Assembly: GCF_036507355.1 (NCBI RefSeq)
Contig: NZ_AP027877.1
Direction: 5' to 3' (one strand)
Source: Escherichia coli
GTDB lineage: Bacteria; Pseudomonadota; Gammaproteobacteria; Enterobacterales; Enterobacteriaceae
Length of the DNA stretch: 64,000 nucleotides
Below, in pieces: positions 3,359 to 60,010 of the stretch (the stretch's first letter is position 1; the number at the start of each line of letters is the position of its first letter). The position numbers and the translations under genes were made by a program. The notes under the pieces were generated by a model. It was not told where the DNA came from, searched no databases, and was given only the letters and a program-made list of their open reading frames with translations.

Positions 3359-3377
3359 TGGAATGAGGAAGAACCCC

Positions 3378-14708: not shown

Positions 14709-14949
14709 TAGCAATACTCTTCTGATTTTGAGAATTGTGACTTTGGAAGATTGTAGCGCCAGTCACAGAAAAATGTGATGGTTTTAGTGCCGTTAGCGTA
14801 ATGTTGAGTGTAAACCCTTAGCGCAGTGAAGCATTTATTAGCTGAACTACTGACCGCCAGGAGTGGATGAAAAATCCGCATGACCCCGTCGTTGACAACC
14901 GCCCCGCTCACCCTTTATTTATAAATGTACTACCTGCGCTAGCGCAGGC

Positions 14950-15200
14950 CAGAAGAGGCGCGTTGCCCAAGTAACGGTGTTGGAGGAGCCAGTCCTGTGA
15001 TAACACCTGAGGGGGTGCATCGCCGAGGTGATTGAACGGCTGGCCACGTTCATCATCGGCTACAGGGGCTGAATCCCCTGGGTTGTCACCAGAAGCGTTC
15101 GCAGTCGGGCGTTTCGCAAGTGGTGGAGCACTTCTGGGTGAAAATAGTAGCGAAGTATCGCTCTGCGCCCACCCGTCTTCCGCTCTTCCCTTGTGCCAAG
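14950..15200 (+). promoter_or_regulatory. lysine riboswitch (L-box) in lysC 5' leader
   Basis: Long structured leader upstream of lysC containing AGAGGCGC...GGAGGAGCC...CTGTGATAAC...GAGGGGG motifs characteristic of the lysC LYS element. Confidence 0.8.
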
Positions 15201-16582: not shown

Positions 16583-16726
16583 TATTTCCCTACTGGCGTA
16601 TAACGCTCACCAATTGTTATACGCCATCCTCACTGAAAACATAGATTAAATAATATCTGAAAAGCAAAATCACTCCTGTAGAACAGTATTATAACCACCG
16701 AAAAATATCATTTAACAGGAGTGTTA

Positions 16727-17656
16727 ATGGCTACTTTAATGGAAAAGGATGCACTTTTAAACGGCGCCAGTCAGTGCATCGCGTTTTTATCAAATATCGT
16801 CGACAGTTGTTTTTCCTCACAAGTTCAGGACTCAGACGATGAGCTATCACAATTAGTCAGCTATCGCGACAATCTTTATTCCACTCCAGCAGAAATTGTT
16901 GATTTTACACAGGGAATGTTACGCCTCCAGCAGGTCAGAAAAAAGTATCAGCGTGAATTTAATAATACTGCGCATTCAGAAAATAAAGCGTCTTTTGATT
17001 CTATTTGGCAGCGTCTGACAAACCATGACGTCACATCCCAGCAGAGTCCCATTGGTTTTGTTTTAGGTGGACAACCAGGAGCCGGAAAATCCATCCTAAT
17101 CGAATTAGCAAAAAGGGAAACAAAGAATAATATAATGATTATTAATGGTGATGATTTCAGATTTCTACACCCTGATTTTAATTATATATATCAAACTTAT
17201 GGCGACGATTTTGTTACCCATACGGCAAAATTTTCCGGCGAAACGGTCGAACGTGCAATAGAGAGGGCCATAGCCAATAAACTCAATATTGTTGTCGAAG
17301 GAACATTTCGTAATGCCGCTACGCCGCTACAAACATTAAAAAAACTCAAAGATGCAGGCTACCGAACAGAAGTCATGATAAAAACCACCTCAGCGGCATT
17401 AAGCTGGGAAAGCACCAACGAACGGTATAATAAGGACAAAGAGGCGGGAAATATCGCCCGCAAAGTGGATAAAAATCACCATGATATCGTCACCGATTTG
17501 CTAGCAGAAAATGCCAGCAAGGTGTTTGCTTCAAACCTGGCAGATAAGTTTGCGGTGTATTCGCGTGAGAAGATGATATTTAGTTCACAAGCGGCAACCA
17601 ATTGCGATATTGCAACGCTTATACAAAATGAAATCAGCGGAAGTGCACAAGAATAA
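16727..17656 (+). CDS. zeta-toxin-family P-loop kinase with ~100-aa N-terminal extension (EzeT-like single-chain toxin/antitoxin candidate)
   Basis: ORF 16721..17656; ATG at 16727 preceded by AGGAG; Walker A GGQPGAGKS followed by motifs resembling zeta/PezT UDP-GlcNAc kinases (INGDDFR..HP, EGTFR); AT-rich codon usage; not part of the K-12 lysC-yjbD arrangement as I recall it. Confidence 0.7.
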   Translation: MATLMEKDALLNGASQCIAFLSNIVDSCFSSQVQDSDDELSQLVSYRDNLYSTPAEIVDFTQGMLRLQQVRKKYQREFNNTAHSENKASFDSIWQRLTNHDVTSQQSPIGFVLGGQPGAGKSILIELAKRETKNNIMIINGDDFRFLHPDFNYIYQTYGDDFVTHTAKFSGETVERAIERAIANKLNIVVEGTFRNAATPLQTLKKLKDAGYRTEVMIKTTSAALSWESTNERYNKDKEAGNIARKVDKNHHDIVTDLLAENASKVFASNLADKFAVYSREKMIFSSQAATNCDIATLIQNEISGSAQE

Positions 17657-17688
17657 TAAAAGCTGATGACCTGAAATAACGCCGGGCA

Positions 17689-18489
17689 TCACGCCCGGCG
17701 CATTACCGTCTGGTACAGTAAGCTATCCAGTTTCTTAACGTCCCCTTCTCTACTATCCGGTAACACAGGCGGAATTTCCCCACGCGCCAGTTCCGCATGG
17801 ATAAACGCATGTAGCAATGGACGGCGTGGGCCATATTCCGCTTCACCCGCACGCTGTTTACGTTCCAGTAATTCATCTATTTCTGCGCGTAAGGCCGCAT
17901 CCAACTCACTTCCCGCCAGCAATTCGGAAAAACGCATTGGCGGTACGCCTTTTCCCGCTTCAACCCAACGCACGGCCAGCAACGGACGCAGCACGTAAAA
18001 GTATTTTTTCAGTCGAACTTCATCGCCCTGCAAATATCCGCGGAAGTTTTTCTGCGCCATCGAATAGTAATGCCAGCGCGCACGCAGCGGAGAAAACCAC
18101 GTTGGGACCATTGCCTTAAGCGCCGTTATCGTTTCTTCATCTTGTTGATAGACCACCGGAGAATCCAGCCATTCTATCAGCGTCGGGTTCGCGCCTTTCA
18201 ATAATCCCAGCGCCTTACGCCACTCCCAACCGGAAACATCTAACTCGTCGTCGATGGGCAGCTCAATAACATCGCGCGGTGACTCTACTCGCAGATACCA
18301 TTCCAGCGGGTGAACATACAAAAACCGTACATCGTAGTCGCTGTCGGGCGAGGCAAATCCCCAACCGCGACTCCCCGATTCACAGGCGTACAGTACTTTC
18401 ACATCATACCGCCGTTCAATTTCTTTTAACTGCTGCGATACCCTTTCGCGCATCGCAGCACTGACTCCATTTAATGGCATGTTACTCAC
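17689..18489 (-). CDS. Pol-beta-superfamily nucleotidyltransferase (266 aa), uncharacterised
   Basis: ORF track; ESGSRGWGFASPDSDYDVRFLY = GS-x9-DxD nucleotidyltransferase motif; start overlaps stop of upstream SPFH gene by 4 bp. Confidence 0.7.
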   Translation of the reverse strand: MSNMPLNGVSAAMRERVSQQLKEIERRYDVKVLYACESGSRGWGFASPDSDYDVRFLYVHPLEWYLRVESPRDVIELPIDDELDVSGWEWRKALGLLKGANPTLIEWLDSPVVYQQDEETITALKAMVPTWFSPLRARWHYYSMAQKNFRGYLQGDEVRLKKYFYVLRPLLAVRWVEAGKGVPPMRFSELLAGSELDAALRAEIDELLERKQRAGEAEYGPRRPLLHAFIHAELARGEIPPVLPDSREGDVKKLDSLLYQTVMRRA

Positions 18490-19613
18490 CCTTTGATATT
18501 AACCAACCCGTGCAGAACCTGATCCAGACCGCCAAATACAGAGATGTTATCAATCCGCTCAGCCACTCTCTCCAGCGTTTCCAGCTCTTTTAAACGCAAC
18601 GCTACCGGATTGTTCTCCATGACTTTGGCGGTGTTCAGTAACGAGCGCGTCGCTGCCGTTTCTTCACGTCGGCGAATCACATTCGCCTGCGCAGATTTCT
18701 CTGCCTCAACCAGCTGCGCAAGGATATTTTTCATATCGCCAGGCAGGACGATATCTTTCACCCCTAATGAAGCAATCTCCATACCGAACGGCTTCATGCG
18801 CGATTTCACCTGTTCGCTGACAACGTCATCAATGACCTGTTTATCTTCCAGCAATTCATCCAGCGTACGCGTACCTACCACTTCACGCAGTGCAAATTGC
18901 AATTCCCGATACAAATGATCAATCGGCTTCGTTAACTGACTAAATGCTAATAACACGTCGCTGTAGCGCCAGTTAGCCGCGAGGTTAATCCGCAGATTGA
19001 CCTTATCTTTCGTTAAGATTTCTTGCCCGCTGACTTCCAGTACCTGCAAGCGGGTGTCAACCACTTCAGCTTCAACCAGATGGTTAATTTTCCAGTACGC
19101 GGTAAGCCCCGGCGGTAACAGCGCCTGCGTTTCACCATCGATTTTCAGCACGCCTACATGCCAGGCCGGAACCTGCACCGTCAGTATCGCATCGCGGCCT
19201 TTAACAACTCCTTTGCGCCGTGGCTGTAATACCGCATTCATCACCTCCGTTTGTACCGGGACTTGCTGCGTATTCATCCGCACCAGCGTCAAATCATCCT
19301 CTACACGCCAGTACAAACGACGCGTTGATGGCGGCAGGATCTCCAACAAAATACCGTCCATATACAACACCCCGGCTTCAGTCTCCGACAAGTCTGCCAC
19401 CAGGCAATATTTCTCCACCCAATCAGGCTGAAAGCGGCGCAAATAATCCGCAAGCACGTCGGGAACTTCGCTACCATCCAGCGTAATCAGCAACACTTCC
19501 GGGGTATTTAACCAGGGTAAAATATGCTCGCCTGCATGCAGCACTTTGTAGTAATCGCCGTTTCTGGAGAGTAATGCCAGCTGATCTTTTCTTACGCTTA
19601 TTTTTTTAATCAT
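18486..19613 (-). CDS. SPFH/band-7 (stomatin/flotillin-like) domain protein without obvious N-terminal TM helix (375 aa)
   Basis: ORF track; C-terminal half has band-7 hallmarks (GMEIASLGVKDIVLPGDMKNILAQLVEAEKSAQANVIRRREETAA...LRLKELETLERVAERI); hydrophilic N-terminus. Confidence 0.7.
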   Translation of the reverse strand: MIKKISVRKDQLALLSRNGDYYKVLHAGEHILPWLNTPEVLLITLDGSEVPDVLADYLRRFQPDWVEKYCLVADLSETEAGVLYMDGILLEILPPSTRRLYWRVEDDLTLVRMNTQQVPVQTEVMNAVLQPRRKGVVKGRDAILTVQVPAWHVGVLKIDGETQALLPPGLTAYWKINHLVEAEVVDTRLQVLEVSGQEILTKDKVNLRINLAANWRYSDVLLAFSQLTKPIDHLYRELQFALREVVGTRTLDELLEDKQVIDDVVSEQVKSRMKPFGMEIASLGVKDIVLPGDMKNILAQLVEAEKSAQANVIRRREETAATRSLLNTAKVMENNPVALRLKELETLERVAERIDNISVFGGLDQVLHGLVNIKG

Positions 19614-20141
19614 TATCTATTCCTTGCTTAATAGCCGTCGCGGAAGCAGACACGAAGCGACAGGGGAATTCCCTTTTGCCTGTTACCCGGCATCTTTATC
19701 GGCGACGTTATCGGGGACCGCAGACTGCGCAATCCCTCATTTTTTATTTAATAAGTTACAACCAGTATTCATTTCAGGAATGAATGTGGGAATCGAACCC
19801 GTAATTGGCGTCAAAGGCTGATGGAACACGCCCGGAAAACAGCCTGGCCGTTCCTGGTGTGCCGACGGGGTTTAACCCCCTTTGTAATTCAGTATCAACG
19901 CAAAAGTGTTATTGCGAGAAGCGTGCCAGAAGTGATAAAAAATTTTAATTACATGAAAAATAAAGATTTAATAAATCATTATTGTTTGTAGGGGGAGATT
20001 TTTTCGCTAAATTTGTATCTGTATTTATCGTCAATTATCAAGAAAGATAAATATTTAAGAAGAGAACAAAGGAATATTATCAGTTCTGCTTGCAAATAAA
20101 TTCCCGTACACTGAACTATCCGATTAACAGAGGGCACCATC

Positions 20142-21287: not shown

Positions 21288-21634
21288 AAATTCTCCTGTA
21301 AAACGCGGAATATACCGTACCTCTTAGCGGGGAAAAACAGGGTTATGCGGCAACGTCGAAATTAAATGTGATCTGCCACGCCTTTTATCACAAAAGTGTC
21401 TCCGGAAGTACAATGCAAATTTGCCTGGCAAAATAAGGATAATCAACATATTACGAATCGCTGCACACCTGTGCTGATGACTACTGCGCAGAGAAACAAA
21501 TGTGCAAGAGAAAGCGCTATTTCTCCCCATGCAAAGAGTGAAAAATCGCTTTGAAAGGCCATCATGATGGGGTTATATCAGATCAAGCGGTGAGAAAGCG
21601 TATTTGCACAAATGTGCAGAACCAGGAGGCGGCA

Positions 21635-22582
21635 ATGGAAAACAGTGACGATATCCGTTTGATTGTGAAGATTGCCCAACTCTATTACGAACAGGATATG
21701 ACGCAGGCGCAAATCGCGCGCGAACTGGGTATTTACCGCACCACCATCAGCCGCTTGCTTAAACGAGGCCGCGATCAGGGAATTGTCACCATCGCCATCA
21801 ACTATGACTACAACGAAAATCTCTGGCTCGAGCAGCAACTGAAGCAAAAGTTTGGCCTGAAAGACGTTGTGGTGGTGTCGGGAAATGATGAGGATGAAGA
21901 GACTCAACTGGCGATGATGGGGTTACACGGCGCGCAACTGCTGGATCGCTTGCTGGAGCCTGGCGATATTGTCGGTTTTTCCTGGGGTCGCGCGGTGAGC
22001 GCACTGGTTGAAAACTTGCCGCAAGCGGGGCAATCGCGGCAGTTAATCTGCGTGCCAATTATTGGCGGACCGTCCGGTAAACTCGAAAGCCGCTATCACG
22101 TAAACACATTAACCTACAGCGCGGCAGCGAAGCTGAAAGGGGAATCGCATCTCGCGGATTTTCCGGCTCTGCTGGATAACCCCTTAATTCGTAATGGGAT
22201 CATGCAGTCTCAGCACTTTAAAACCATCTCTGCCTACTGGGATAATCTGGATGTCGCCCTGGTGGGAATTGGCTCACCGGCCATTCGCGACGGCGCTAAC
22301 TGGCATACGTTTTATGGTGGTGAAGAGAGTGACGACCTGAATGCCCGCCAGGTTGCTGGCGATATTTGCTCGCGCTTTTTTGATATTCACGGCGCAATGG
22401 TTGAAACGAATATGAGCGAAAAAACACTCTCTATCGAAATGAATAAATTAAAGCAGGCACGATATTCAATTGGCATTGCCATGAGTGAAGAAAAATACAG
22501 CGGAATTATTGGTGCACTGTGTGGAAAATATATTAATTGTCTGGTAACGAATAGCAGCACAGCTGAACTATTACTGAAATAA
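21635..22582 (+). CDS. sorC: SorC-family transcriptional regulator of the sorbose operon (315 aa)
   Basis: ORF 21551..22582; start taken at MENSDDIRLIVKIAQLYYEQDMTQAQIARELGIYRTTISRLLKRG (HTH) preceded by AGGAGG; C-terminal sugar-binding domain. Confidence 0.85.
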   Translation: MENSDDIRLIVKIAQLYYEQDMTQAQIARELGIYRTTISRLLKRGRDQGIVTIAINYDYNENLWLEQQLKQKFGLKDVVVVSGNDEDEETQLAMMGLHGAQLLDRLLEPGDIVGFSWGRAVSALVENLPQAGQSRQLICVPIIGGPSGKLESRYHVNTLTYSAAAKLKGESHLADFPALLDNPLIRNGIMQSQHFKTISAYWDNLDVALVGIGSPAIRDGANWHTFYGGEESDDLNARQVAGDICSRFFDIHGAMVETNMSEKTLSIEMNKLKQARYSIGIAMSEEKYSGIIGALCGKYINCLVTNSSTAELLLK

Positions 22583-22651
22583 AAATCTTCCCGATGTTTA
22601 TCGTAATAAAAATTACGGCGGGTCCCTATTATCTAAAATCAGGAGTCTGTT

Positions 22652-23458
22652 ATGCAAACGTGGTTAAATTTGCAGGATAAAATCATTATCGTCACCGGCG
22701 GCGCATCCGGTATTGGTCTGGCGATTGTAGAGGAATTATTAGCACAAGGCGCGAATGTACAGATGGTCGATATTCACGGTGGCGATGGACAATATGAAGG
22801 TCATAAAGGCTATCAGTTTTGGCCGACCGATATTTCCAGCGCCAAAGAGGTAAATCATACGGTAGCGGAAATTATCCAGCGTTTTGGTCGCATCGACAGT
22901 CTGGTCAATAACGCCGGGGTCAATTTCCCGCATCTGCTGGTCGATGAGAAAGCGCCTGCCGGGCAGTATGAACTCAACGAAGCTGCATTCGAAAAAATGG
23001 TCAATATCAACCAGAAAGGCGTTTTTCTGATGTCGCAGGCGGTGGCGCGACAGATGGTCAAACAACATGATGGCGTGATTGTGAATGTTTCCTCAGAAAG
23101 TGGACTGGAAGGCTCAGAAGGACAAAGCTGTTACGCCGCTACCAAAGCCGCGCTCAATAGCTTCACGCGCTCCTGGTCGAAAGAATTGGGTAAACACGGT
23201 ATCCGTGTGGTCGGTATCGCGCCGGGGATTCTGGAAAAAACAGGACTGCGCACGCCGGAATATGAAGAAGCGCTGGCGTGGACGCGCAATATCACCGTCG
23301 AGCAGCTGCGTGAAGGCTATACCAAAAACGCCATTCCTATTGGGCGCGCCGGTAGATTAGCAGAAGTCGCTGATTTTGTTTGTTATCTGTTGTCTGAACG
23401 CGCCAGCTACATCACCGGAGTAACCACTAACATTGCGGGCGGCAAAACGCGCGGCTAA
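22652..23458 (+). CDS. sorD: short-chain dehydrogenase SorD (D-glucitol-6-phosphate dehydrogenase-like, 268 aa)
   Basis: ORF track; TGGASGIG Rossmann motif, YAATKAA catalytic motif; second gene of sor operon. Confidence 0.85.
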   Translation: MQTWLNLQDKIIIVTGGASGIGLAIVEELLAQGANVQMVDIHGGDGQYEGHKGYQFWPTDISSAKEVNHTVAEIIQRFGRIDSLVNNAGVNFPHLLVDEKAPAGQYELNEAAFEKMVNINQKGVFLMSQAVARQMVKQHDGVIVNVSSESGLEGSEGQSCYAATKAALNSFTRSWSKELGKHGIRVVGIAPGILEKTGLRTPEYEEALAWTRNITVEQLREGYTKNAIPIGRAGRLAEVADFVCYLLSERASYITGVTTNIAGGKTRG

Positions 23459-23467
23459 GGAGGCTTT

Positions 23468-23875
23468 ATGGTCAACGCCATTTTTTGTGCCCACGGCAAA
23501 TTAGCTTGCGCCATGCTGGAATCGGTTCAGATGGTTTACGGCAACGCCAATGTTGAAGCCGTTGAATTTGTGCCCGGTGAAAACGCCGGAGACATCGTAG
23601 CAAAGCTGGAAAAGTTAGTAAGCATTCACAATCAAGATGAGTGGCTGATTGCCGTGGATTTACAGTGCGGCAGCCCGTGGAATGCGGCAGCGATGCTTGC
23701 GATGCGCAATCCTCGTCTGCGGGTAATCAGCGGCCTTTCTCTGCCGCTGGCGCTCGAACTGGTTGATAACCAGGACAGCATGAATGTTGATGAACTGTGT
23801 GAACACCTGACGCAAATCGCAAAGCAAACCTGCGTTGTCTGGAAACAACTGGCAACGGCAGAGGAGGATTTCTGA
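23468..23875 (+). CDS. sorF: PTS mannose-family EIIA, sorbose-specific (135 aa)
   Basis: ORF track; size, order and sequence match mannose-family IIA. Confidence 0.85.
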   Translation: MVNAIFCAHGKLACAMLESVQMVYGNANVEAVEFVPGENAGDIVAKLEKLVSIHNQDEWLIAVDLQCGSPWNAAAMLAMRNPRLRVISGLSLPLALELVDNQDSMNVDELCEHLTQIAKQTCVVWKQLATAEEDF

Positions 23876-24369
23876 TGAACATTACGCTCGCCCGCATTGA
23901 TGACCGCCTGATCCACGGTCAGGTCACTACCGTCTGGTCGAAAGTGGCTAACGCCCAGCGCATTATTATCTGCAATGACGAAGTTTATAACGATGAAGTT
24001 CGCCGGACATTATTGCGTCAGGCTGCGCCACCGGGAATGAAGGTTAACGTGGTCAATATTGAAAAAGCCGTCGCGGTGTATCACAACCCGCAATATCAGG
24101 ACGAAACCGTTTTTTATCTTTTCACTCGCCCACAGGATGCCTTAGCGATGGTTCGCCAGGGGGTAAAAATAGACACCCTGAATATTGGCGGCATGGCCTG
24201 GCGGCCCGGTAAAAAACAGTTAACCAAAGCGGTTTCATTAGATGATGATGATATTAACTCATTTCATGAGTTAAATAATCTTGGCGTCATACTGGATTTA
24301 CGCGTCGTAGCGTCAGATCCCTCAATCAATATTATCGACAAAATAAACGAACAGTTAATCGCAAATTAA
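23875..24369 (+). CDS. sorB: PTS mannose-family EIIB, sorbose-specific (164 aa)
   Basis: ORF track; IDDRLIHGQV phospho-His motif of mannose-family IIB. Confidence 0.88.
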   Translation: MNITLARIDDRLIHGQVTTVWSKVANAQRIIICNDEVYNDEVRRTLLRQAAPPGMKVNVVNIEKAVAVYHNPQYQDETVFYLFTRPQDALAMVRQGVKIDTLNIGGMAWRPGKKQLTKAVSLDDDDINSFHELNNLGVILDLRVVASDPSINIIDKINEQLIAN

Positions 24370-24434
24370 ATAATAGCGCCTGTGTACATATGCTTTAACA
24401 GGCAGGGATGACGACACTTAAAAGGTGACAAATC

Positions 24435-25232
24435 ATGGAAATAAGTACCCTACAAATCATTGCTATATTTCTTTTTTCCTGTATTGCCGGAATGGGCAGC
24501 GTGCTGGATGAATTTCAGACTCATCGCCCGTTAATTGCCTGTACGGTGATTGGTTTAATTCTCGGTGATTTAAAAACCGGAATAATACTCGGTGGTACGC
24601 TGGAATTGATAGCTCTCGGCTGGATGAACGTCGGCGCGGCGCAATCTCCGGATTCTGCACTCGCCAGCATAATCTCCGCCATTCTGGTTATCGTTGGTCA
24701 GCAAAGCATCGCCACCGGAATCGCCATCGCGTTGCCTGTGGCTGCGGCAGGCCAGGTGCTGACGGTGTTTGCACGTACCATCACCGTAGTGTTCCAGCAC
24801 GCGGCGGATAAAGCAGCGGAAGAGGCACGGTTTCGCACTCTCGATATTCTGCATGTCTCCGCGCTTGGCGTGCAGGCGCTGCGCGTCGCCATTCCGGCAC
24901 TGATTGTCTCGCTGTTCGTCAGCGCCGATATGGTCAGCAATATGTTAAACGCCATTCCCGAATTTGTGACCCGAGGTCTGCAAATTGCTGGCGGTTTTAT
25001 CGTGGTGGTCGGTTACGCCATGGTGCTACGTATGATGGGCGTGAAATATTTGATGCCTTTCTTTTTCCTCGGTTTCCTCGCAGGTGGCTACCTCGATCTC
25101 AGTCTGCTGGCGTTCGGTGGCGTCGGCGTGATCATGGCCCTGGTCTACATCCAGCTAAATCCACAGTGGCGTAAAGCTGAACCTCAACTCCTGGCCCCCG
25201 CTTCCACCGCCCTTGACCAACTTGACGATTAA
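24435..25232 (+). CDS. sorA: PTS mannose-family EIIC, sorbose-specific (265 aa)
   Basis: ORF track; polytopic membrane protein. Confidence 0.88.
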   Translation: MEISTLQIIAIFLFSCIAGMGSVLDEFQTHRPLIACTVIGLILGDLKTGIILGGTLELIALGWMNVGAAQSPDSALASIISAILVIVGQQSIATGIAIALPVAAAGQVLTVFARTITVVFQHAADKAAEEARFRTLDILHVSALGVQALRVAIPALIVSLFVSADMVSNMLNAIPEFVTRGLQIAGGFIVVVGYAMVLRMMGVKYLMPFFFLGFLAGGYLDLSLLAFGGVGVIMALVYIQLNPQWRKAEPQLLAPASTALDQLDD

Positions 25233-25242
25233 CGGAGCCATC

Positions 25243-26067
25243 ATGGAACAGAGAAAAATTACACGCGGCGATCTGGTGAGCATGTTTCTGCGCTCCAACC
25301 TGCAACAGGCGTCCTTTAACTTTGAACGTATTCACGGGCTGGGTTTTTGCTACGACATGATCCCCGCCATCAAGCGACTTTACCCATTAAAAGAGGATCA
25401 GGTTGCGGCGCTCAGGCGACACCTGGTGTTCTTCAATACCACGCCAGCCGTATGTGGCCCGGTCATCGGCGTCACTGCCGCCATGGAAGAGGCGCGGGCC
25501 AACGGCGCGGAAATTGATGACGGTACCATTAACGGCATCAAAGTCGGCCTGATGGGACCGTTGGCAGGGGTTGGCGATCCACTGGTCTGGGGAACGCTGC
25601 GCCCGATTACCGCCGCGCTCGGCGCATCTCTGGCACTTTCGGGCAACATTCTCGGCCCGCTGCTGTTCTTCTTTATTTTCAACGCGGTGCGTCTGGCGAT
25701 GAAGTGGTATGGCCTACAGCTCGGCTTTCGCAAAGGGGTGAATATCGTCAGCGATATGGGCGGGAATGTGCTGCAAAAACTCACCGAAGGCGCGTCGATT
25801 CTCGGACTGTTTGTGATGGGCGTGCTGGTCACCAAATGGACGTCAATCAACGTACCGTTGGTGGTTTCACAAACGCATGCCGCCGATGGCTCCACCGTCA
25901 CCATGACCGTGCAGAACATTCTCGACCAACTTTGCCCTGGTTTGCTGGCGCTCGGTCTGACGCTACTAATGGTTCGTCTGCTCAACAAAAAAATTAACCC
26001 GGTATGGCTGATTTTCGCCCTGTTTGGCTTAGGGATTATCGGCAATGCGCTGGGCTTCCTGTCCTGA
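25243..26067 (+). CDS. sorM: PTS mannose-family EIID, sorbose-specific (274 aa)
   Basis: ORF 25213..26067; start taken at MEQRKITRGDLVSMFLRS after GGAG. Confidence 0.88.
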   Translation: MEQRKITRGDLVSMFLRSNLQQASFNFERIHGLGFCYDMIPAIKRLYPLKEDQVAALRRHLVFFNTTPAVCGPVIGVTAAMEEARANGAEIDDGTINGIKVGLMGPLAGVGDPLVWGTLRPITAALGASLALSGNILGPLLFFFIFNAVRLAMKWYGLQLGFRKGVNIVSDMGGNVLQKLTEGASILGLFVMGVLVTKWTSINVPLVVSQTHAADGSTVTMTVQNILDQLCPGLLALGLTLLMVRLLNKKINPVWLIFALFGLGIIGNALGFLS

Positions 26068-26118
26068 TTCTTCGCCCCGGCACGACTGCCGGGGCCATCG
26101 CTCAACATGAGGTGGTTT

Positions 26119-27348
26119 ATGAAAACAACAGCTCTGCGTCTTTATGGTAAACGTGATTTACGCCTGGAAACCTTTGACCTTCCTGAAATGCAGGAGGATG
26201 AAATCCTCGCGACGGTGGTCACTGACAGCCTGTGTCTCTCTTCCTGGAAAGAGGCCAACCTGGGTGAAAACCATAAAAAAGTACCCGACGATGTGGCGAC
26301 CAACCCAATCATCATCGGCCACGAGTTTTGCGGCGATATTCTGGCCGTGGGTAAAAAGTGGCAGCACAAATTCCAGCCGGGTCAGCGTTATGTGATTCAG
26401 GCCAACCTGCAACTCCCCGACCGCCCGGACTGCCCCGGCTACTCCTTCCCGTGGGTAGGCGGCGAAGCCACGCATGTGGTTATTCCCAACGAGGTCATGG
26501 AACAAGATTGCCTGCTGGCATACGACGGCGAAACCTATTTTGAAGGCTCGCTGGTTGAACCGCTTTCCTGCGTGATTGGCGCGTTCAACGCCAACTATCA
26601 TCTTCAGAAAGGTAGTTATAACCACACGATGGGGATTCGCCCGCAAGGGCGCATGCTGATCCTCGGCGGCACCGGACCAATGGGGCTGTTGGCGATTGAT
26701 TATGCGCTGCATGGACCCGTTAACCCGTCGCTGCTCGTCATTACCGATACCGACAACGATAAATTGAGTTATGCGCGCAAGCACTATCCATCAGAATCGC
26801 AAACACTGATTCATTATCTCAATGCCACCGATGCAGCATTTGATACGCTAATGGCGCTGAGTGGCGGTCACGGCTTCGATGATATTTTCGTCTTTGTGCC
26901 TAATGAAGGACTGGTGACTCTCGCCTCTTCCTTGCTGGCGACAGATGGTTGCCTGAATTTCTTCGCCGGACCGCAGGATAAACATTTCAGCGCGCCAATT
27001 AATTTCTACGATGTGCATTATGCATTTACCCACTACGTGGGCACGTCAGGCGGCAATACCGACGACATGCGCGCAGCGGTCAAATTGATTGAAGAGAAAA
27101 AAGTGCAGGCCGCAAAAGTGGTAACACATATTCTTGGGCTGAATGCCGCGGGCGAAACCACGCTTGAATTGCCTGCCGTCGGCGGCGGCAAAAAGCTGGT
27201 GTATACCGGGAAATACCTGCCGCTGACGTCACTCACGCAGATTCAGGATCAAGCACTGGCGGCGATTCTGACGCGTCATCAGGGGATCTGGTCCGGTGAG
27301 GCGGAGCAATATCTGCTCACTCATGCAGAGGCAATTTCCCATGATTAA
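26119..27348 (+). CDS. sorE: zinc-dependent MDR-family dehydrogenase SorE (sorbose-1-phosphate reductase-like, ~409 aa)
   Basis: ORF 26107..27348; start taken at MKTTALRLYG; last gene of sorCDFBAME. Confidence 0.85.
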   Translation: MKTTALRLYGKRDLRLETFDLPEMQEDEILATVVTDSLCLSSWKEANLGENHKKVPDDVATNPIIIGHEFCGDILAVGKKWQHKFQPGQRYVIQANLQLPDRPDCPGYSFPWVGGEATHVVIPNEVMEQDCLLAYDGETYFEGSLVEPLSCVIGAFNANYHLQKGSYNHTMGIRPQGRMLILGGTGPMGLLAIDYALHGPVNPSLLVITDTDNDKLSYARKHYPSESQTLIHYLNATDAAFDTLMALSGGHGFDDIFVFVPNEGLVTLASSLLATDGCLNFFAGPQDKHFSAPINFYDVHYAFTHYVGTSGGNTDDMRAAVKLIEEKKVQAAKVVTHILGLNAAGETTLELPAVGGGKKLVYTGKYLPLTSLTQIQDQALAAILTRHQGIWSGEAEQYLLTHAEAISHD

Positions 27349-27509
27349 TCGCACTACTCAACTCTGCATGTCGCTGGCAGGTCGCCGCGGCAACTTCGCG
27401 ACCTGATGTGCGGCTGATTGCTGAAGCGGCCCAATGTGCACGAGAAGGATAAAAAAACATCAGCGCCTTAAGGGGCGCTCAAATTGGTGGCAAAGTACAC
27501 ATTGTTTAT

Positions 27510-27612
27510 GCCGGATGCGGAATAAAGCCTTATTCGGCCTACATAATCTCGAAAATTCAATATATTGCAGTTATCTGGTAGGCCTGGTAAGCGTAGCGCA
27601 TCAGGCAATGCT
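27510..27612. repeat. REP/BIME elements between sorE and pepE
   Basis: TGCCGGATGCGGAATAAAGCCTTATTCGGCCTACA ... GGTAGGCCTGGTAAGCGTAGCGCATCAGGCAATG. Confidence 0.8.
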
Positions 27613-27730
27613 GTGTTTGTCATCAGTCTCAGCGCCCGGTGCAATACGTGACATCGTGAGCCATGTCAGTAAGTGGTTAAATTCGCAGTGGTAGCATGCC
27701 TTCCGTGATTTCTTACTAACCGGAGAAGTA

Positions 27731-34243: not shown

Positions 34244-35068
34244 ATGGTCGCACCCATTCCCGCAAAACGCGGCAGAAAACCCGCCGTTGCCACCGCACCA
34301 GCGACTGGACAGGTTCAGTCTTTAACGCGTGGGCTGAAATTACTGGAGTGGATTGCCGAATCCAATGGCAGTGTGGCTCTTACGGAACTGGCACAGCAAG
34401 CCGGATTACCTAATTCCACTACTCACCGCCTGCTAACCACGATGCAACAACAGGGCTTTGTCCGTCAGGTTGGTGAACTGGGTCACTGGGCGATCGGCGC
34501 ACATGCTTTTATGGTCGGCAGTAGCTTTCTCCAGAGCCGTAATTTGTTAGCCATTGTCCATCCTATTCTGCGCAATCTGATGGAAGAGTCTGGCGAAACG
34601 GTAAATATGGCAGTGCTGGATCATAGCGATCACGAAGCGATTATTATCGACCAGGTACAGTGTACGCATCTGATGCGTATGTCAGCCCCTATCGGCGGTA
34701 AGTTACCAATGCATGCCTCTGGTGCCGGTAAAGCTTTTTTAGCCCAACTGAGCGAAGAACAGGTGACGAAACTTCTGCATCGCAAAGGCTTACATGCCTA
34801 TACCCACGCGACGCTGGTGTCTCCTGTGCATTTAAAAGAGGACCTCGCCCAGACGCGTAAACGTGGCTATTCATTTGACGATGAAGAACATGCGCTGGGG
34901 CTTCGTTGCCTCGCGGCGTGTATTTTCGATGAACACCGCGAACCATTTGCCGCAATTTCGATTTCCGGGCCGATTTCACGTATTACCGATGATCGCGTAA
35001 CCGAGTTTGGCGCGATGGTGATTAAAGCGGCGAAGGAAGTAACGCTGGCGTATGGCGGAATGCGGTGA
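34244..35068 (+). CDS. iclR: glyoxylate-shunt repressor IclR (274 aa)
   Basis: ORF 34025..35068; start taken at MVAPIPAKRGRKPAVATAPATGQVQSLTRGLKLLEW preceded by AAGGAG; upstream in-frame extension judged spurious. Confidence 0.95.
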   Translation: MVAPIPAKRGRKPAVATAPATGQVQSLTRGLKLLEWIAESNGSVALTELAQQAGLPNSTTHRLLTTMQQQGFVRQVGELGHWAIGAHAFMVGSSFLQSRNLLAIVHPILRNLMEESGETVNMAVLDHSDHEAIIIDQVQCTHLMRMSAPIGGKLPMHASGAGKAFLAQLSEEQVTKLLHRKGLHAYTHATLVSPVHLKEDLAQTRKRGYSFDDEEHALGLRCLAACIFDEHREPFAAISISGPISRITDDRVTEFGAMVIKAAKEVTLAYGGMR

Positions 35069-35084
35069 CATTTTCGCCTCTGAT

Positions 35085-36809
<1,725 letters not shown>

Positions 36810-36836: not shown

Positions 36837-36972
36837 TGCCGGATGCGGCGTAAACGCCTTATCCAGCCTACGTTCGGCAACGGTTGTAGGCATGATAAGA
36901 CGCGCAAGCGTCGCATCAGGCATCGTGCACCGATTGCCGGATGCGGCGTAAATGCCTTATCCGGCCTACAGT
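36837..36972. repeat. REP/BIME cluster between aceA and aceK
   Basis: Multiple GCCGGATGCGGCGTAAACGCCTTATCC / GTAGGCATGATAAGACGCG units. Confidence 0.85.
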
Positions 36973-42247: not shown

Positions 42248-42367
42248 ATGCCTGGCAGTTCCCTACTCTCGCATGGGGAGACCCCACACTACCATCGGCG
42301 CTACGGCGTTTCACTTCTGAGTTCGGCATGGGGTCAGGTGGGACCACCGCGCTACGGCCGCCAGGCA
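42248..42367 (-). rRNA. rrfE: 5S ribosomal RNA
   Basis: Reverse complement matches canonical E. coli 5S (TGCCTGGCGGCCGTAGCGCGGTGGTCCCACCTGACCCCATGCCGAACTCAG...CATGCGAGAGTAGGGAACTGCCAGGCAT). Confidence 0.97.
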
Positions 42368-42460
42368 AATTCTGTTTTATCAGACCGCTTCTGCGTTCTG
42401 ATTTAATCTGTATCAGGCTGAAAATCTTCTCTCAATCCGCCAAAACAGCTTCGGCGTTGT

Positions 42461-45363
<2,903 letters not shown>

Positions 45364-45556
45364 TCACAACCCGAAGATGTTTCTTTCGATTCATCATCGT
45401 GTTGCGAAAATTTGAGAGACTCACGAACAACTCTCGTTGTTCAGTGTTTCAATTTTCAGCTTGATCCAGATTTTTAAAGAGCAAATATCTCAAACATCAC
45501 CCGAAGATGAGTTTTGAGATATTAAGGTCGGCGACTTTCACTCACAAACCAGCAAG

Positions 45557-45632
45557 TGGCGTCCCCTAGGGGATTCGAACCCCTGTTACCGCCGTGAAAG
45601 GGCGGTGTCCTGGGCCTCTAGACGAAGGGGAC
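45557..45632 (-). tRNA. gltV: tRNA-Glu (UUC) in 16S-23S spacer
   Basis: Reverse complement = GTCCCCTTCGTCTAGAGGCCCAGGACACCGCCCTTTCACGGCGGTAACAGGGGTTCGAATCCCCTAGGGGACGCCA. Confidence 0.95.
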
Positions 45633-45717
45633 GTATCAGTCTGCTTCGCAAGACGCCTTGCTTTTCACTTTCTATCAGACAATCTGTGTGAGCACTACAA
45701 AGAACGCTTCTTTAAGG

Positions 45718-47259
<1,542 letters not shown>

Positions 47260-49476: not shown

Positions 49477-50766
49477 ATGAAAGTATTAGTGATTGGTAAC
49501 GGCGGGCGCGAGCACGCGCTGGCCTGGAAAGCGGCCCAGTCGCCGCTCGTTGAAACGGTTTTTGTTGCTCCGGGTAATGCAGGCACTGCACTGGAACCTG
49601 CGCTGCAAAACGTCGCCATCAATGTGACCGATATTCCGGCACTGCTGAGCTTTGCGCAGAATGAAAAAATTGACCTGACCATCGTTGGCCCGGAAGCGCC
49701 ACTGGTGATTGGCGTCGTTGACGCGTTCCGCGCAGCAGGTTTGAAAATATTCGGACCGACTGAGGGCGCCGCGCAACTCGAAGGTTCTAAAGCGTTTACC
49801 AAGGATTTCCTGGCACGCCACCACATCCCAACAGCGGAATACCAGAACTTCACCGAGATTGAGCCTGCGCTGGTGTATCTGCGCGAGAAAGGTGCACCGA
49901 TCGTTATCAAAGCAGACGGTCTGGCGGCGGGTAAAGGCGTAATCGTCGCGATGACACTCGAAGAAGCCGAAGCGGCCGTTCACGACATGCTGGCGGGTAA
50001 CGCTTTTGGCGACGCAGGTCACCGCATTGTTATCGAAGAATTCCTCGATGGCGAGGAAGCGAGCTTTATTGTGATGGTTGACGGCGAACACGTGTTACCG
50101 ATGGCCACCAGTCAGGATCATAAACGCGTGGGTGATAAGGACACCGGGCCAAACACAGGCGGAATGGGCGCTTACTCTCCTGCGCCGGTAGTGACTGATG
50201 AAGTTCATCAGCGCACGATGGAGCGCATCATCTGGCCAACCGTGAAAGGCATGGCAGCGGAAGGTAACACGTATACCGGTTTTCTGTATGCGGGCCTGAT
50301 GATCGACAAACAGGGCAATCCGAAGGTTATCGAATTCAACTGCCGCTTTGGCGATCCGGAAACCCAGCCGATTATGCTGCGCATGAAGTCCGATCTGGTT
50401 GAGCTTTGCCTGGCGGGCTGTGAAGGCAAGCTGGACGAAAAAAAATCCGAGTGGGATGAACGCGCATCGCTAGGTGTGGTGATGGCTGCGGGCGGTTATC
50501 CGGGTGATTATCGCAAGGGCGATGTGATCCACGGCCTGCCGCTGGAAGAAGTGGCAGGCGGCAAAGTGTTCCACGCGGGCACAAAACTGGCGGATGACGA
50601 GCAGGTGGTAACCAGCGGCGGGCGCGTACTGTGCGTCACCGCGCTGGGTCATACCGTGGCAGAAGCGCAGAAACGCGCCTACGCCTTAATGACCGATATC
50701 CACTGGGATGATTGCTTCTGCCGGAAAGATATCGGTTGGCGCGCCATCGAACGCGAGCAGAACTAA
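49477..50766 (+). CDS. purD: phosphoribosylamine-glycine ligase PurD (429 aa)
   Basis: ORF 49465..50766; start taken at MKVLVIGNGGREHALAWKAAQSPLVE after GGAG. Confidence 0.96.
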   Translation: MKVLVIGNGGREHALAWKAAQSPLVETVFVAPGNAGTALEPALQNVAINVTDIPALLSFAQNEKIDLTIVGPEAPLVIGVVDAFRAAGLKIFGPTEGAAQLEGSKAFTKDFLARHHIPTAEYQNFTEIEPALVYLREKGAPIVIKADGLAAGKGVIVAMTLEEAEAAVHDMLAGNAFGDAGHRIVIEEFLDGEEASFIVMVDGEHVLPMATSQDHKRVGDKDTGPNTGGMGAYSPAPVVTDEVHQRTMERIIWPTVKGMAAEGNTYTGFLYAGLMIDKQGNPKVIEFNCRFGDPETQPIMLRMKSDLVELCLAGCEGKLDEKKSEWDERASLGVVMAAGGYPGDYRKGDVIHGLPLEEVAGGKVFHAGTKLADDEQVVTSGGRVLCVTALGHTVAEAQKRAYALMTDIHWDDCFCRKDIGWRAIEREQN

Positions 50767-52088
50767 CGCGACAGTTTTGCCAATAGCGTTTTGCGCGTGA
50801 TCCCTAACTGACGGGCGGCTTCGGTTTTGTTGCCGCCCGTTTTCTCCAGTGCCGCCAGAATCACTTCTTTTTCGACTTCCACCAGCGGCTGAATATCCTG
50901 ACTTTGCCCCAGCGGGATCGGCGTACCGGCAATCGCCAGCGGCAGCTCGCGTTCGGAAATATATTCCCCGGTCAGCAGCACCACCGCCCGTTCCACCGCG
51001 TTTTCCAGTTCACGAATATTTCCCGGCCAGTCGTAGTGGATCAGCAAATCCATCGCCTGTGGCGTAAAGCCTTTTACCGCCTTGCGATTACGCTCGGCAA
51101 AGCGCTGAAGAAAATGGCCAGCCAGCAGAGGGATATCTTCCCTCCGTTGCCGCAGCGATGGTACTTCAATCGCCACCACATTCAGGCGATAGTAGAGATC
51201 CTGGCGAAAACGCCCGGCATTCACCTCTGCGGCAAGATCGCGATGGGTCGCCGCAATCAGCCGGACATCAACCGAGATAGTCTGGTTGCTACCGACACGC
51301 TGAACTTCGCGCTCCTGAATCGCACGCAGCAGACGCACCTGCATCATCGGCGAGATATCGCCAATTTCATCGAGAAACAGCGTGCCGCCGTCCGCCTCAA
51401 CAAAGCGCCCTTCCCGGCGTTTATCGGCTCCGGTAAACGCCCCTTTTTCGTGACCGAACAATTCAGATTCCAGCAAGGATTCGTTAAGTGCCGCACAGTT
51501 GAGCGTTACCAGCGGTTTTTCGCTACGTGCGCTACTGGCGTGAATCGCCTTGGCGACCAGCTCTTTACCGGTGCCGGAATCGCCGTGGATCAGCACCGTG
51601 GCTTCCGATGGCGCGACGAGGGAGATTTCACTGAGCAGGTGTTGCATCGCCGGGCTTTTACCGACCATACCGAACTGGCTGGCAGTCACCGCAGGTGTTT
51701 CAGCATCAATACTGTGTGTATGCGCGAGCGCCTTTTCCAGCGTCGCCTGTAGGTTATCGAAATCCAGCGGCTTGATGAGATAATCCAGCGCCCCAGTTTT
51801 CAGTGCCTCTACCGCCGTCTCGACGCTGGAGTACGCAGTCATAATCAGCACCGGAATTGCCGGGTTTAACGCTTTGATCTCTTTCAGCGTGGCGATGCCG
51901 TCCATCTCCGCCATTCGCACATCGCAAAGCACAAGATCAAAAACCTGTTCCCGCACCTGCTCCAGCGCCTGTCGCCCGCTGTTCGCCAGCGCGACGTTAT
52001 AGCCCCAGCCTCGCAGTAAAGCCTGCAAAATAGTGCAGTGGCTAATGTCATCATCCACCACCAGAATATCGATATTATCGTGCGTCAT
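50763..52088 (-). CDS. zraR: sigma54-dependent response regulator ZraR/HydG (441 aa)
   Basis: ORF track; receiver domain, AAA+ sigma54-activator domain (GESGTGKE, GAFTGA), C-terminal HTH. Confidence 0.95.
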
Positions 52089-52293
52089 CCTTGTGGGTCC
52101 TTACGCGTAATATTGACCGGAAGCCAGAGGGTGAACGTTGCGCCTTTTCCCTTCTGGCTTGCGACCTGAATTGTACCACCGTGTTGTTCAACAATATTAT
52201 GCACGACCGCCAGCCCCAATCCGGTGCCTTCGGCTTTGGTGGTGAAGTACGGAGTGAAGATGGCTTCAAGCTGATCTGGGTAATGACTCCAAC

Positions 52294-52797
52294 TTATTGA
52301 TAGTGTTTTATGTTCAGATAATGCCCGATGACTTTGTCATGCAGCTCCACCGATTTTGAGAACGACAGCGACTTCCGTCCCAGCCGTGCCAGGTGCTGCC
52401 TCAGATTCAGGTTATGCCGCTCAATTCGCTGCGTATATCGCTTGCTGATTACGTGCAGCTTTCCCTTCAGGCGGGATTCATACAGCGGCCAGCCATCCGT
52501 CATCCATATCACCACGTCAAAGGGTGACAGCAGGCTCATAAGACGCCCCAGCGTCGCCATCGTGCGTTCACCGAATACGTGCGCAACAACCGTCTTCCGG
52601 AGCCTGTCATACGCGTAAAACAGCCAGCGCTGGCGCGATTTAGCCCCGACATAGCCCCACTGTTCGTCCATTTCCGCGCAGACGATGACGTCACTGCCCG
52701 GCTGTATGCGCGAGGTTACCGACTGCGGCCTGAGTTTTTTAAGTGACGTAAAATCGTGTTGAGGCCAATGCCCATAATGCGGGCTGTTGCCCGGCAT
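52294..52797 (-). CDS. insB: IS1 InsB (167 aa; expressed as InsAB' transposase by -1 frameshift at the A6C motif)
   Basis: ORF track; [51 protein letters not shown]...; overlaps insA 3' end containing AAAAAAC slippery site. Confidence 0.95.
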
Positions 52798-52991
52798 CCA
52801 ACGCCATTCATGGCCATATCAATGATTTTCTGGTGCGTACCGGGTTGAGAAGCGGTGTAAGTGAACTGCAGTTGCCATGTTTTACGGCAGTGAGAGCAGA
52901 GATAGCGCTGATGTCCGGCGGTGCTTTTGCCGTTACGCACCACCCCGTCAGTAGCTGAACAGGAGGGACAGCTGATAGAAACAGAAGCCAC
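52716..52991 (-). CDS. insA: IS1 InsA (91 aa)
   Basis: ORF track; [43 protein letters not shown]... Confidence 0.95.
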
Positions 52992-54270
52992 TGGAGCACC
53001 TCAAAAACACCATCATACACTAAATCAGTAAGTTGGCAGCATCACCGCTGATCTGCCGCAATTCCCTTACCGCTGTCGGTAACGCTGATTTTCACGCCCG
53101 CGCCGCTTTCGCTGGCCGTCACGCTAATCACGCCATGCTGACCAATCGCCTGAATAGCATTGAGATAGAGATTCAACAGGACCTGAGTCAGCCTGTCCGG
53201 ATCGGCCTGAATTTCCGGTAATGTGTCGTTGGCGGTAAAGCGTAACTGGATCTCCCGGCTGTTTGCATCCTGGCTTACCAGCTGTAATGAGTGGTTAATC
53301 AGAGTGTTGAGGTCCACCGCCTGCAAAGCCAGATGCGTTGGCTTAACCAGTTCCAGCAGCTCGCTTACCACGCGGTTTAATCGGTCAGCTTCTTTCGCCA
53401 TCACCTGCGCCAGTTGATGCGCTTCTCCCCCTGCAGGCGCGCGCTCGGCAAAGTATTTCGCCAGTCCTTTAATCGAGGAAAGTGGGTTACGGATTTCGTG
53501 GGCAACGCCTGCCGCAAGATGCCCCAGCGCCACCAGCTTCTCTTTGCGCTTCATTTCATCTTGTAGAAGCTGGCGCGAGCGCAGATAGCGGCGATACCAG
53601 AAGAATGACAATACGCTTGCCAGCAAGACCGTCGCCAGGGCGAAGAGGATAATCAGGGTGTTTCTCTGCTCACGATCTTCGGCACTCACAATATTACTGG
53701 CGTCGAAAGCGATGAAAATTGCTTGTGGTGTCGCGGCATACTGCTGCATATGGCGCATCCGGTGCATTCCAGCAGCAAACATCGGTTGAAACTGGCGATA
53801 AATTTCCAGAACAGGCTCGCCGTCTGCGCTATCGATCCGCCGCCACACTTCTTCATCTCCCGGATGTAACTGCTGCATTTCCTGCGGGGAATAAAGCTGT
53901 TTTCCCACCATGCCGGAGTTGCTATGCATCACGATTGTTCCTTGTTCATCCGTGACCGCAAACCAACGTACTCCAGGCTGCCCGGCTATTTCTTCCAGTA
54001 AGGCCTGCTGCTGCGCATGATGCATGCGCATCCCCATGCCGACGCGCGAGCCGGATTCAAGAGCGCGAATAAGTACACTGCCTTTTTCCAGCAGCGTTTG
54101 TCTGGCGGCGGCAGTCTCGCGCCCATAATCGCGAATCACCGTCACCGCAAACAACCCTACCAGCCCAACAATGACCACGGGGAGGATCGCGCTTAACCAT
54201 TTAGCTAAGGAGTCTTTAGAACGTTGCATAAAACGCATCTTCTTCTTTGCCTGTTCATCCCTTTTTACCA

Positions 54271-54286
54271 GCAGAAATCATGCCAT
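54271..54286 (-). promoter_or_regulatory. sigma54 (-24/-12) promoter of zraSR
   Basis: Minus strand TGGCAT-N6-TGCT with GG/GC spaced as in the TGGCAC-N5-TTGCA consensus. Confidence 0.65.
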
Positions 54287-54336
54287 CTTTTATCGCCACC
54301 GACTCTGCGCTGTAACACAAAGACTTAAGTTTCAAT

Positions 54337-54382
54337 GAGTAAAAATGACTCGCTACCCACAGCAGGCGAGTCATTTTTACTC
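54337..54382. promoter_or_regulatory. ZraR enhancer-binding palindrome between divergent zraP and zraSR
   Basis: Perfect 17-bp inverted repeat GAGTAAAAATGACTCGC-N12-GCGAGTCATTTTTACTC centred between the two sigma54 promoters. Confidence 0.7.
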
Positions 54383-54424
54383 GTTTATCATGCCAGATTG
54401 CCCGTCATATCAGCGTTTCGTTGT

Positions 54425-54440
54425 TGGCACGGAAGATGCA
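54425..54440 (+). promoter_or_regulatory. sigma54 (-24/-12) promoter of zraP
   Basis: TGGCACGGAAGATGCA about 35 bp upstream of the zraP start. Confidence 0.75.
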
Positions 54441-54475
54441 ATACCCGAAGTAAGACAACCACTGGAAGATTAACC

Positions 54476-54895
54476 ATGAAACGGAACACGAAAATTGCCC
54501 TGGTGATGATGGCGCTTTCAGCAATGGCGATGGGATCGACATCTGCATTTGCTCACGGCGGACACGGTATGTGGCAGCAAAATGCCGCGCCTTTGACCAG
54601 CGAACAACAGACAGCGTGGCAGAAAATCCATAATGACTTTTACGCTCAAAGCAGCGCACTGCAACAGCAACTGGTGACGAAGCGTTATGAATACAATGCC
54701 CTGTTAGCCGCGAACCCACCGGATAGCAGCAAAATTAACGCGGTCGCCAAAGAGATGGAGAATTTGCGTCAGTCGTTAGATGAGTTACGGGTGAAACGGG
54801 ATATTGCGATGGCTGAAGCGGGTATTCCGCGCGGTACCGGAATGGGTTACGGCGGCTGCGGTGGTGGCGGTCATATGGGTATGGGCCACTGGTAA
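54476..54895 (+). CDS. zraP: zinc-resistance-associated periplasmic protein ZraP (139 aa)
   Basis: ORF 54335..54895; start taken at MKRNTKIALVMMALSAMAMGSTSAFAHGGHGMW (signal peptide); Gly/His-rich C-tail. Confidence 0.9.
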   Translation: MKRNTKIALVMMALSAMAMGSTSAFAHGGHGMWQQNAAPLTSEQQTAWQKIHNDFYAQSSALQQQLVTKRYEYNALLAANPPDSSKINAVAKEMENLRQSLDELRVKRDIAMAEAGIPRGTGMGYGGCGGGGHMGMGHW

Positions 54896-59826: not shown

Positions 59827-59879
59827 GTTCTGCGCTGTTAACGCGTAATTTACATTCAACGCCCCGTTTGTGGGGGCTA

Positions 59880-60010
59880 ATTTCTTGTCGGAGTGCCTTA
59901 ACTGGCTGAGACCGTTTATTCGGGATCCGCGGAACCTGATCAGGCTAATACCTGCGAAGGGAACAAGAGTTAATCTGCTATCGCATCGCCTTTGCGGCGA
60001 TCGTCTCTTG
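59880..60010 (+). promoter_or_regulatory. TPP (THI-box) riboswitch in thiC leader
   Basis: ...GGAGTGCCTTAACTGGCTGAGACCGTTTATTCGGGATCCGCGGAACCTGATCAGGCTAATACCTGCGAAGGGAACAAGAG contains the conserved CTGAGA and ACCTGATC...GGCTAATACC THI-box elements upstream of thiC. Confidence 0.85.

Follow-up and report, generated by a model that had tools for sequence, protein, structure and literature searches.

An intact IS1 element with a perfect 9-bp target duplication splits the sensor kinase gene zraS

The zra locus and its IS1 copy

The DNA analysed here is a window of 64 kb, by which we mean the whole stretch that was studied, and it is collinear with the 4.19-4.25 Mb region of the K-12 chromosome (thiC-hemE-hupA-zraPSR-purDH-rrnE-aceBAK-metH-lysC-pgi). 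The host appears to be an E. coli-group chromosome, of a lineage that is poorly represented among complete genomes. Within the zra locus, zraP and zraR are intact and score well above the cutoffs of their protein families, while zraS is present in two pieces separated by an insertion sequence (Table 1). The zraP-zraS intergenic region harbors two motifs of the TGGCA-N6-TGC type, one facing each gene. The divergent sigma-54 promoters of zraP and zraSR are driven by ZraR after its activation through ZraS (PMC4987338), and both transcription units were identified as direct ZraR targets by ChIP-exo and knockout transcriptomics (PMC7657598).

The two pieces of zraS are separated by 768 bp enclosed between direct repeats. 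An assignment to IS1 was based on a length of about 768 bp and on imperfect inverted repeats of about 23 bp opening GGTGATG or GGTAATG, and the insert shows all of these characters. Its terminal inverted repeats are 23 bp long and imperfect, matching at 18 of 23 positions; the element starts with GGTAATGACTCCAACTTATTGAT and ends, read as the reverse complement, with GGTGATGCTGCCAACTTACTGAT. Both the insA and the insB reading frames are open. When the programmed -1 frameshift at the A6C motif was reconstructed in silico, an open InsAB' frame of 232 aa was obtained; against NF033558, the NCBIfam equivalog for 'IS1 family transposase', it scored 244.8 bits (cutoff 100). Hence, an earlier reading made from the DNA sequence only, which had described an intact IS1 of about 768 bp with both inverted repeats, insA and insB, proved correct in this respect. 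The element is structurally complete, with all of its sequence features intact.

IS1 is abundant in E. coli, being found in 4,950 of 5,426 complete genomes at a median of 11 places per genome. The copy in zraS matches K-12 IS1A at 765 of 768 bases, the three differences lying at IS positions 278, 444 and 486, and it matches the commonest E. coli IS1A-type copies (e.g. that of strain CP53) at 767 of 768; its best matches among complete E. coli genomes are 99.9% identical. From the IS1B-type copy in strain A37 it is separated by nine differences. The base at IS position 278 (G to A, G278A) is private to the copy in the window and absent from the best matches; it leads to the conservative change V75I in InsA and InsAB'. 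Akin to the window element, K-12 MG1655 IS1A (NC_000913.3 19796-20563) and the copies annotated as 'IS1-like element IS1A family' measure 768 bp, carry identical terminal repeats and share the insA / A6C / insB' organisation. In contrast to these widespread IS1A copies, the window element bears the private V75I and occupies a different genomic location. A composite transposon was considered and rejected, the 64-kb window containing a single IS1 copy and no other long repeat.

On both sides the element is bordered by the 9-mer GCTGATCTG. On the plus strand this 9-mer occurs only twice in the 64-kb window, in both cases flanking IS1, and two 9-mers would agree at 9/9 positions by chance with a probability of 4^-9 = 3.8e-6. 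Since the flanking bases beyond the repeats differ, the duplication is exactly 9 bp long. Target-site duplications of IS1 typically have this length. The insertion junction reads GGCTTCAAGCTGATCTG/GGTAATGACTCC, the slash marking the boundary. Deletion of IS1 together with one copy of GCTGATCTG in silico resulted in a continuous zraS ORF of 458 codons. A single clean insertion with a perfect 9-bp target duplication had been claimed beforehand, and flanks that fail to rebuild zraS had been named as the finding that would speak against it; the flanks do rebuild the frame, the 9-mer is exact on both sides, and relatives with an empty site carry it once (see below). Downstream of the element, zraR begins 190 nt past IRR, its ATG overlapping the zraS stop codon (ATGA). 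This agrees with the earlier placement of IS1 upstream of zraR in the zraSR operon. Most probably, one IS1A-type copy entered zraS at codon 398 by simple insertion, duplicating the 9-bp target GCTGATCTG, and nothing found contradicts this structural account.

Table 1. Positions of genes, IS1 parts and sequence motifs at the interrupted zra locus (window coordinates)
Feature	Position	Strand	Remarks
zraR	50763-52088	minus	intact, 441 aa; 993 bits against NF007689 (cutoff 760)
Orphaned 3' zraS remnant	52085-52278	minus	codons 398-458 and stop; F-box, ATP lid, G2 box and rest of CA domain
Target-site duplication, zraR-proximal copy (GCTGATCTG)	52270-52278		identical to 53047-53055
IS1 element	52279-53046	minus	768 bp; insA to insB co-directional with zraS and zraR
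IRR (right terminal inverted repeat)	52279-52301	minus	ends as in K-12 IS1A
insB reading frame	52294-52797	minus	167 codons/aa, open
insA	52716-52991	minus	91 codons/aa, GTG start, open; private V75I
A6C (AAAAAAC) programmed -1 frameshift motif	52734-52740	minus	IS coordinates 307-313; joins insA and insB' frames
Sigma-70-like promoter site in IRL	53012-53039	minus	CTGCCA-16-TATGAT; only such site on this strand in 51900-54500
IRL (left terminal inverted repeat, insA-proximal)	53024-53046	minus	holds the TGA closing the truncated zraS ORF
Truncated zraS' ORF	53042-54238	minus	398 codons: 397 native and a hybrid Arg, then TGA in IRL
Target-site duplication, zraS 5'-side copy (GCTGATCTG)	53047-53055		identical to 52270-52278
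Sigma-54-type promoter motif upstream of zraS	54270-54285	minus	TGGCAT-N5-CTGCT; pattern match
Sigma-54-type promoter motif upstream of zraP	54425-54440	plus	TGGCAC-N5-ATGCA; pattern match
zraP	54476-54895	plus	intact, 139 aa; 279.5 bits against NF008584 (cutoff 200); divergent from zraS

Position of the break in ZraS

The reconstructed ZraS protein (458 aa) scored 879.6 bits against the ZraS equivalog NF007688 (cutoff 479) and contains the Pfam domains HisKA (residues 238-300) and HATPase_c (346-450). The H-box was mapped to residues 247-253, the N-box to 356-364 and the G1 box (DSGKGI) to 388-393. The insertion breaks the protein after residue 397 of 458, by which the F-box (FTPYF, 402-406) and the G2 box (GTGLGL, 412-417) are lost. 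As had been noted earlier, an N-terminal fragment of 397 codons remains that terminates inside IS1: the native codons are followed by the hybrid Arg codon, composed of C from zraS and GG from IS1, and by the TGA within IRL. The product of the truncated ORF matches ZraS at 748 bits over profile positions 1-399 of 460. In ZraS(1-397) the periplasmic sensor and the two transmembrane segments are still present, as are the DHp/HisKA domain, including its phospho-acceptor His, and the N- and G1 boxes. Missing are the F-box, ATP lid and G2 box, along with the final beta-strands of the CA domain. Of the approximately 105 residues of the ATP-binding domain, 52 are kept and 53 lost. In one respect the sequence-only reading has to be revised. 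It placed the cut ahead of the C-terminal ATP-binding segment, but HATPase_c is interrupted halfway, with the G1 box on one side of the break and the F-box on the other. A cut at this position raises, rather than lowers, the probability that the kinase is dead.

The structure of the ZraS cytoplasmic domain (PMC12314577) allows for a comparison at the level of single residues. In K-12 numbering, which equals the window numbering +7, nucleotide contacts and the lid were assigned to Phe409/413, Thr410-Gly423, Leu424 and Ser448, and ATP contacts to residues that include Lys416, Thr414/415/420, Leu424, Gly419/421/423 and Ser448 (PMC12314577). All of these named residues lie beyond the ZraS break. 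Half a CA domain would fail to bind ATP, and ZraS autophosphorylation would not take place. Judged from the protein sequence and the published ZraS structure, the ZraS kinase should be dead. ZraS(1-397) might retain some DHp-based phosphatase activity rather than being inert. In the open reading frame list of the window no ORF of at least 50 aa ends at the zraS stop codon; a fragment of any size is thus unlikely to be made from the 3' remnant.

The 5' 1.2 kb of zraS is 84% identical to K-12. An unusual zraS allele in the window was considered in view of this low identity and rejected; the window allele is of the majority type and that of K-12 belongs to a minority.

Predicted effects on zraR and zraP

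Without the ZraS kinase, neither zinc nor envelope stress would activate ZraR. With activated ZraR required at their sigma-54 promoters, zraP and zraSR would both remain at basal level. Expression of zraR would presumably fall further, since transcripts starting at the zraS promoter must traverse IS1 and their translation would halt in IRL. From the insA stop codon to the zraR ATG there are 627 nt, which are translated only via the rare frameshift, and some 627 nt of largely untranslated RNA past the insA stop would provide the classical setting for Rho-dependent IS polarity. In addition, translational coupling at the zraS/zraR ATGA overlap would be lost. Polarity on zraR, loss of zinc-responsive signalling and failure to induce zraP, all of which had been put forward from the sequence, are reasonable predictions from the published biology of ZraPSR (PMC4987338, PMC7657598). 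Overall, the allele would amount to a loss of function in ZraPSR, an envelope-stress system that is not essential. An apt annotation of the source strain is consequently zraS::IS1, with zraS as a pseudogene; the strain is predicted to lack zinc- and envelope-stress-inducible expression of zraP, and its tolerance to metals or antibiotics could shift slightly.

The degree of polarity exerted by IS1 is a matter of the classical IS1 literature. Hubner and colleagues are said to have described a terminator in IS1 in 1987. A scan of the zraS-sense strand within IS1 did not reveal any intrinsic terminator. A heuristic for C>G composition ('rut') singled out nothing but a patch within insA, which is translated, and gave no clear site in the untranslated insB stretch.

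Transcription could also originate from the element itself, and zraR might then not be silenced. In this scenario a promoter in IRL, or a hybrid promoter at the IRR junction, would drive zraR independently of sigma-54 and lead to an unphosphorylated regulator or to altered regulation. IS1 is indeed co-directional with zraR, so that insA/insB transcripts head toward it, and IRL contains a promoter-like site whose position presumably corresponds to the known IS1 promoter driving insA. That promoter is weak and repressed by InsA. IS1 insertions forming functional hybrid promoters are reportedly on record, going by the title of a 1986 paper of Prentki and colleagues. At or near the IRR/zraS junction, however, the promoter scan found no outward sigma-70-like promoter, and the best candidate picked by eye, TTGGAG-17-TTGAAG, has a poor -10. 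Moreover, ZraR would be largely inactive as a sigma-54 activator in a cell without a working kinase. We regard continued zraR expression of this kind as improbable. On a smaller scale, weak readthrough from the IRL promoter or from an unrecognised internal promoter could supply basal ZraR, and ZraR could become phosphorylated by cross-talk or acetyl phosphate. A more far-reaching proposal holds that the allele is more than a null, activity of ZraS(1-397) and IS1-borne transcription of zraR together producing a rewired and selected envelope-stress state. For its parts, the membrane-anchored ZraS(1-397) could act as a kinase-dead, phosphatase-only or ZraP-titrating protein, and IS1-borne transcription could uncouple zraR from its sigma-54 autoregulatory loop; the combined proposal seems very unlikely to us.

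The empty site in relatives and the origin of the insertion

An exact look-up of the ZraR protein of the window retrieved seven contigs. Four loci from near-identical relatives were compared, three from NCBI drafts (GCA_905398585.1, GCA_047852605.1 and GCA_016660925.1) and one from an assembled SRA run (SRR17480487). All four carry an uninterrupted zraS of 458 aa adjoining an identical ZraR. Relative to the reconstruction without IS1, they show 2-4 SNPs per approximately 8.6 kb and no gaps (about 0.03% divergence). At the insertion site each relative has a single GCTGATCTG directly followed by CCGCAATTCC, as predicted for the empty site. The alignment to an uninterrupted zraS that had been suggested as a check is therefore gap-free, with one 9-mer in each of the four sequences, and a look for the same insertion in other isolates returned intact zraS in 4/4 closest relatives. 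The suspicion that the insertion is recent was borne out as well: it postdates the split from relatives whose flanks differ by about 0.03%. Taken together, the locus shows a clean, fairly recent simple insertion. With the empty site retained in its closest relatives, it provides a dated example of recent IS1 activity.

Beyond these relatives, the window junction did not turn up in any of the 5,426 complete E. coli genomes, queried with the 1.5-kb segment 51900-53400 that spans both junctions. A 32-nt pattern of the left junction gave 0 matches in GTDB species-representative genomes and likewise 0 in JGI metagenome contigs, and an exact look-up of the truncated ZraS product of 398 aa found none on record. 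IS1 occurs in the zra locus of three of these genomes, representing two events and all at other sites, where the count covers IS1 copies within the query 51900-53400 or joinable to it. In E. coli A37 an IS1B-type copy lies in the 5' end of zraR, and in KKa014 and KFu021 an IS1A-type copy lies in zraP. These insertions hit the same three-gene module, but a different gene and site in another lineage; RefSeq annotates the interrupted genes as partial pseudogenes, and in none of the three is zraS interrupted at codon 398. Insertions of IS1 in this locus are thus rare, and we see no sign of either a hotspot or positive selection.

These counts bear on how the insertion arose. An adaptive origin, in which loss or rewiring of ZraPSR was selected (e.g. 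by exposure to metals or antibiotics) and IS1 merely was the mutational route, could draw on the insertions in A37 (zraR) and KKa014/KFu021 (zraP), which show that IS1 has entered these three genes independently at least twice more, and on a zraS point mutation that rose in a silver-surface evolution line (PMC11960088). Yet the three genomes with IS1 in the query-covered locus fall far short of the approximately 40 expected under a crude uniform model, zraSR is contiguous in about 5,418 genomes, and the site is different in every case. An intact zraS in all four closest relatives gives no indication of the allele spreading. We therefore assign little probability to selection for this insertion. 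An assembly artefact, with a copy of the IS1 repeat misplaced by the assembler, has to be considered for any multi-copy element, and repeats commonly cause misassembly. A misjoin, however, would not yield an exact 9-bp duplication internal to zraS at the exact termini of a complete element, and the private base G278A is not found in the best matches either. The probability of such an artefact is close to negligible. The economical reading is a private knockout that is neutral to mildly deleterious, and its origin would most likely be an accident of IS1 activity with effects of that order. That a simple IS1 insertion generated a loss-of-function allele of ZraPSR, probably as a neutral or mildly deleterious accident, is the account we hold with high confidence.

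In comparison with known cases, zraS::IS1 is an ordinary mutation, specific to its strain. IS1 insertions in the gal operon are among the classical polar and gene-inactivating cases of the older literature. A recent example of suspected IS1 polarity comes from proU, in which proV::IS1 and proU-leader::IS1 (PMC13300293), like zraS::IS1, are simple insertions in the first gene of an operon with loss of the interrupted gene, and a drop in downstream expression is presumed for all of them. While the proV/proU and gal insertions were selected in the laboratory and tested for their phenotype, zraS::IS1 is known here from a natural genome alone. It is a routine case of a non-essential two-component sensor knocked out by IS1, in which element, target and mechanism were all known before. 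No new element, mechanism or system is revealed, and the significance of the insertion is local only.

Some minor observations concern the remainder of the window. A PADLOC scan of a three-gene island at 16.6-20.0 kb gave no matches. Most genes of the window are 97-99.7% identical to K-12, and more divergent segments comprise purD (89%), iclR (92%) and aceK (94%). The best identity to a complete genome amounts to 97.5% over 25 kb and to 98.8% over zraSR. The gene arpA is absent, and the iclR-aceK junction is structured as in phylogroup F genomes (IAI39, CE10), which represent its best match at 94.6% identity.

Single-base differences and other IS1 insertions at the zra locus

The IS1 copy within zraS carries a private G-to-A change at window position 52769 (IS1 coordinate 278), leading to V75I in InsA/InsAB'. 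This substitution was not seen in the best-matching IS1 copies of the complete E. coli genomes, all of which matched at 767/768 positions. Comparison with the four near-identical relatives, in which zraS is uninterrupted, revealed two further changes. Window position 48088 in purH is A, compared to G in 4/4 relatives, and position 52011 in zraR is T, compared to G in 4/4. As the ZraR proteins are identical, the latter change is synonymous. Together with the IS1, these two positions are the sole window-specific differences across the ~8.2-8.8 kb covered by the four relatives.

The zra module is interrupted by IS1 in other strains as well. E. coli A37 harbors an IS1B-type copy ~95 nt inside zraR (2600-3367 of its zra locus, L001), and in KKa014 (~3430-4190 of its zra locus, L002) and KFu021 zraP is split by an IS1A-type copy. 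These are independent IS1 events in the same module, at other sites. Both KKa014 and KFu021 originate from river water in Japan.

Divergence of zraS and purD from K-12

Identity to K-12 is only 84% over the 5' 1.2 kb of zraS, which covers the sensor and DHp region (window 53039-54238), and only 89% over purD (window 49477-50766), whereas the genes neighboring these two stretches reach 97-99.7%. Among the complete genomes, zraSR of the window type forms the majority (5,133 genomes at 95-99% identity), while a minority of 287 genomes, at 90-95%, carries the divergent, K-12-like type. These results suggest that the ZraS sensor region has long existed as two allelic classes.

Gene content and RNA features of the window

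Compared to K-12, the window contains an extra 6.3 kb between rluF and pepE (~21323-27640), encoding a DeoR/SorC-type regulator, a sorbitol-6-phosphate dehydrogenase-type SDR, mannose/sorbose-family PTS IIC and IID components and another dehydrogenase-like protein. The segment looks like an L-sorbose-type utilization operon, an already known accessory cluster. An additional 3.4 kb lies between lysC and yjbD (~16583-20011) and holds three ORFs, none of which matched a PADLOC defense model. Conversely, the arpA gene that K-12 has between aceK and iclR is missing from the window, leaving a gap of only 17 bp (35069-35084) between these two genes. The closest complete-genome matches to this arpA-less junction, IAI39 and CE10 (phylogroup F-type), reach just 94.6% identity; hence, the local iclR-aceK sequence diverges to an unusual degree from every one of the 5,426 complete E. 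coli genomes. The RNA features detected with Rfam are ordinary.

Genes, ORFs and RNA features by window position
Feature	Window position	Strand	Remark
naRNA4/REP-type element	12959-13029		Rfam
Lysine riboswitch	14945-15141		Rfam; upstream of lysC
ORF, 311 aa	16721-17656	+	Zeta-toxin/PezT-like domain, 128.8 bits, under cutoff
ORF	17689-18489	-	No NCBIfam match
ORF	18486-19613	-	No NCBIfam match
iclR	34244-35068	+	
aceK	35085-36809	-	
naRNA4/REP-type element	36889-36966		Rfam
Complete rrn operon with tRNA	42250-47259		Rfam; rrnE position
TPP riboswitch	59879-59979		Rfam; upstream of thiC
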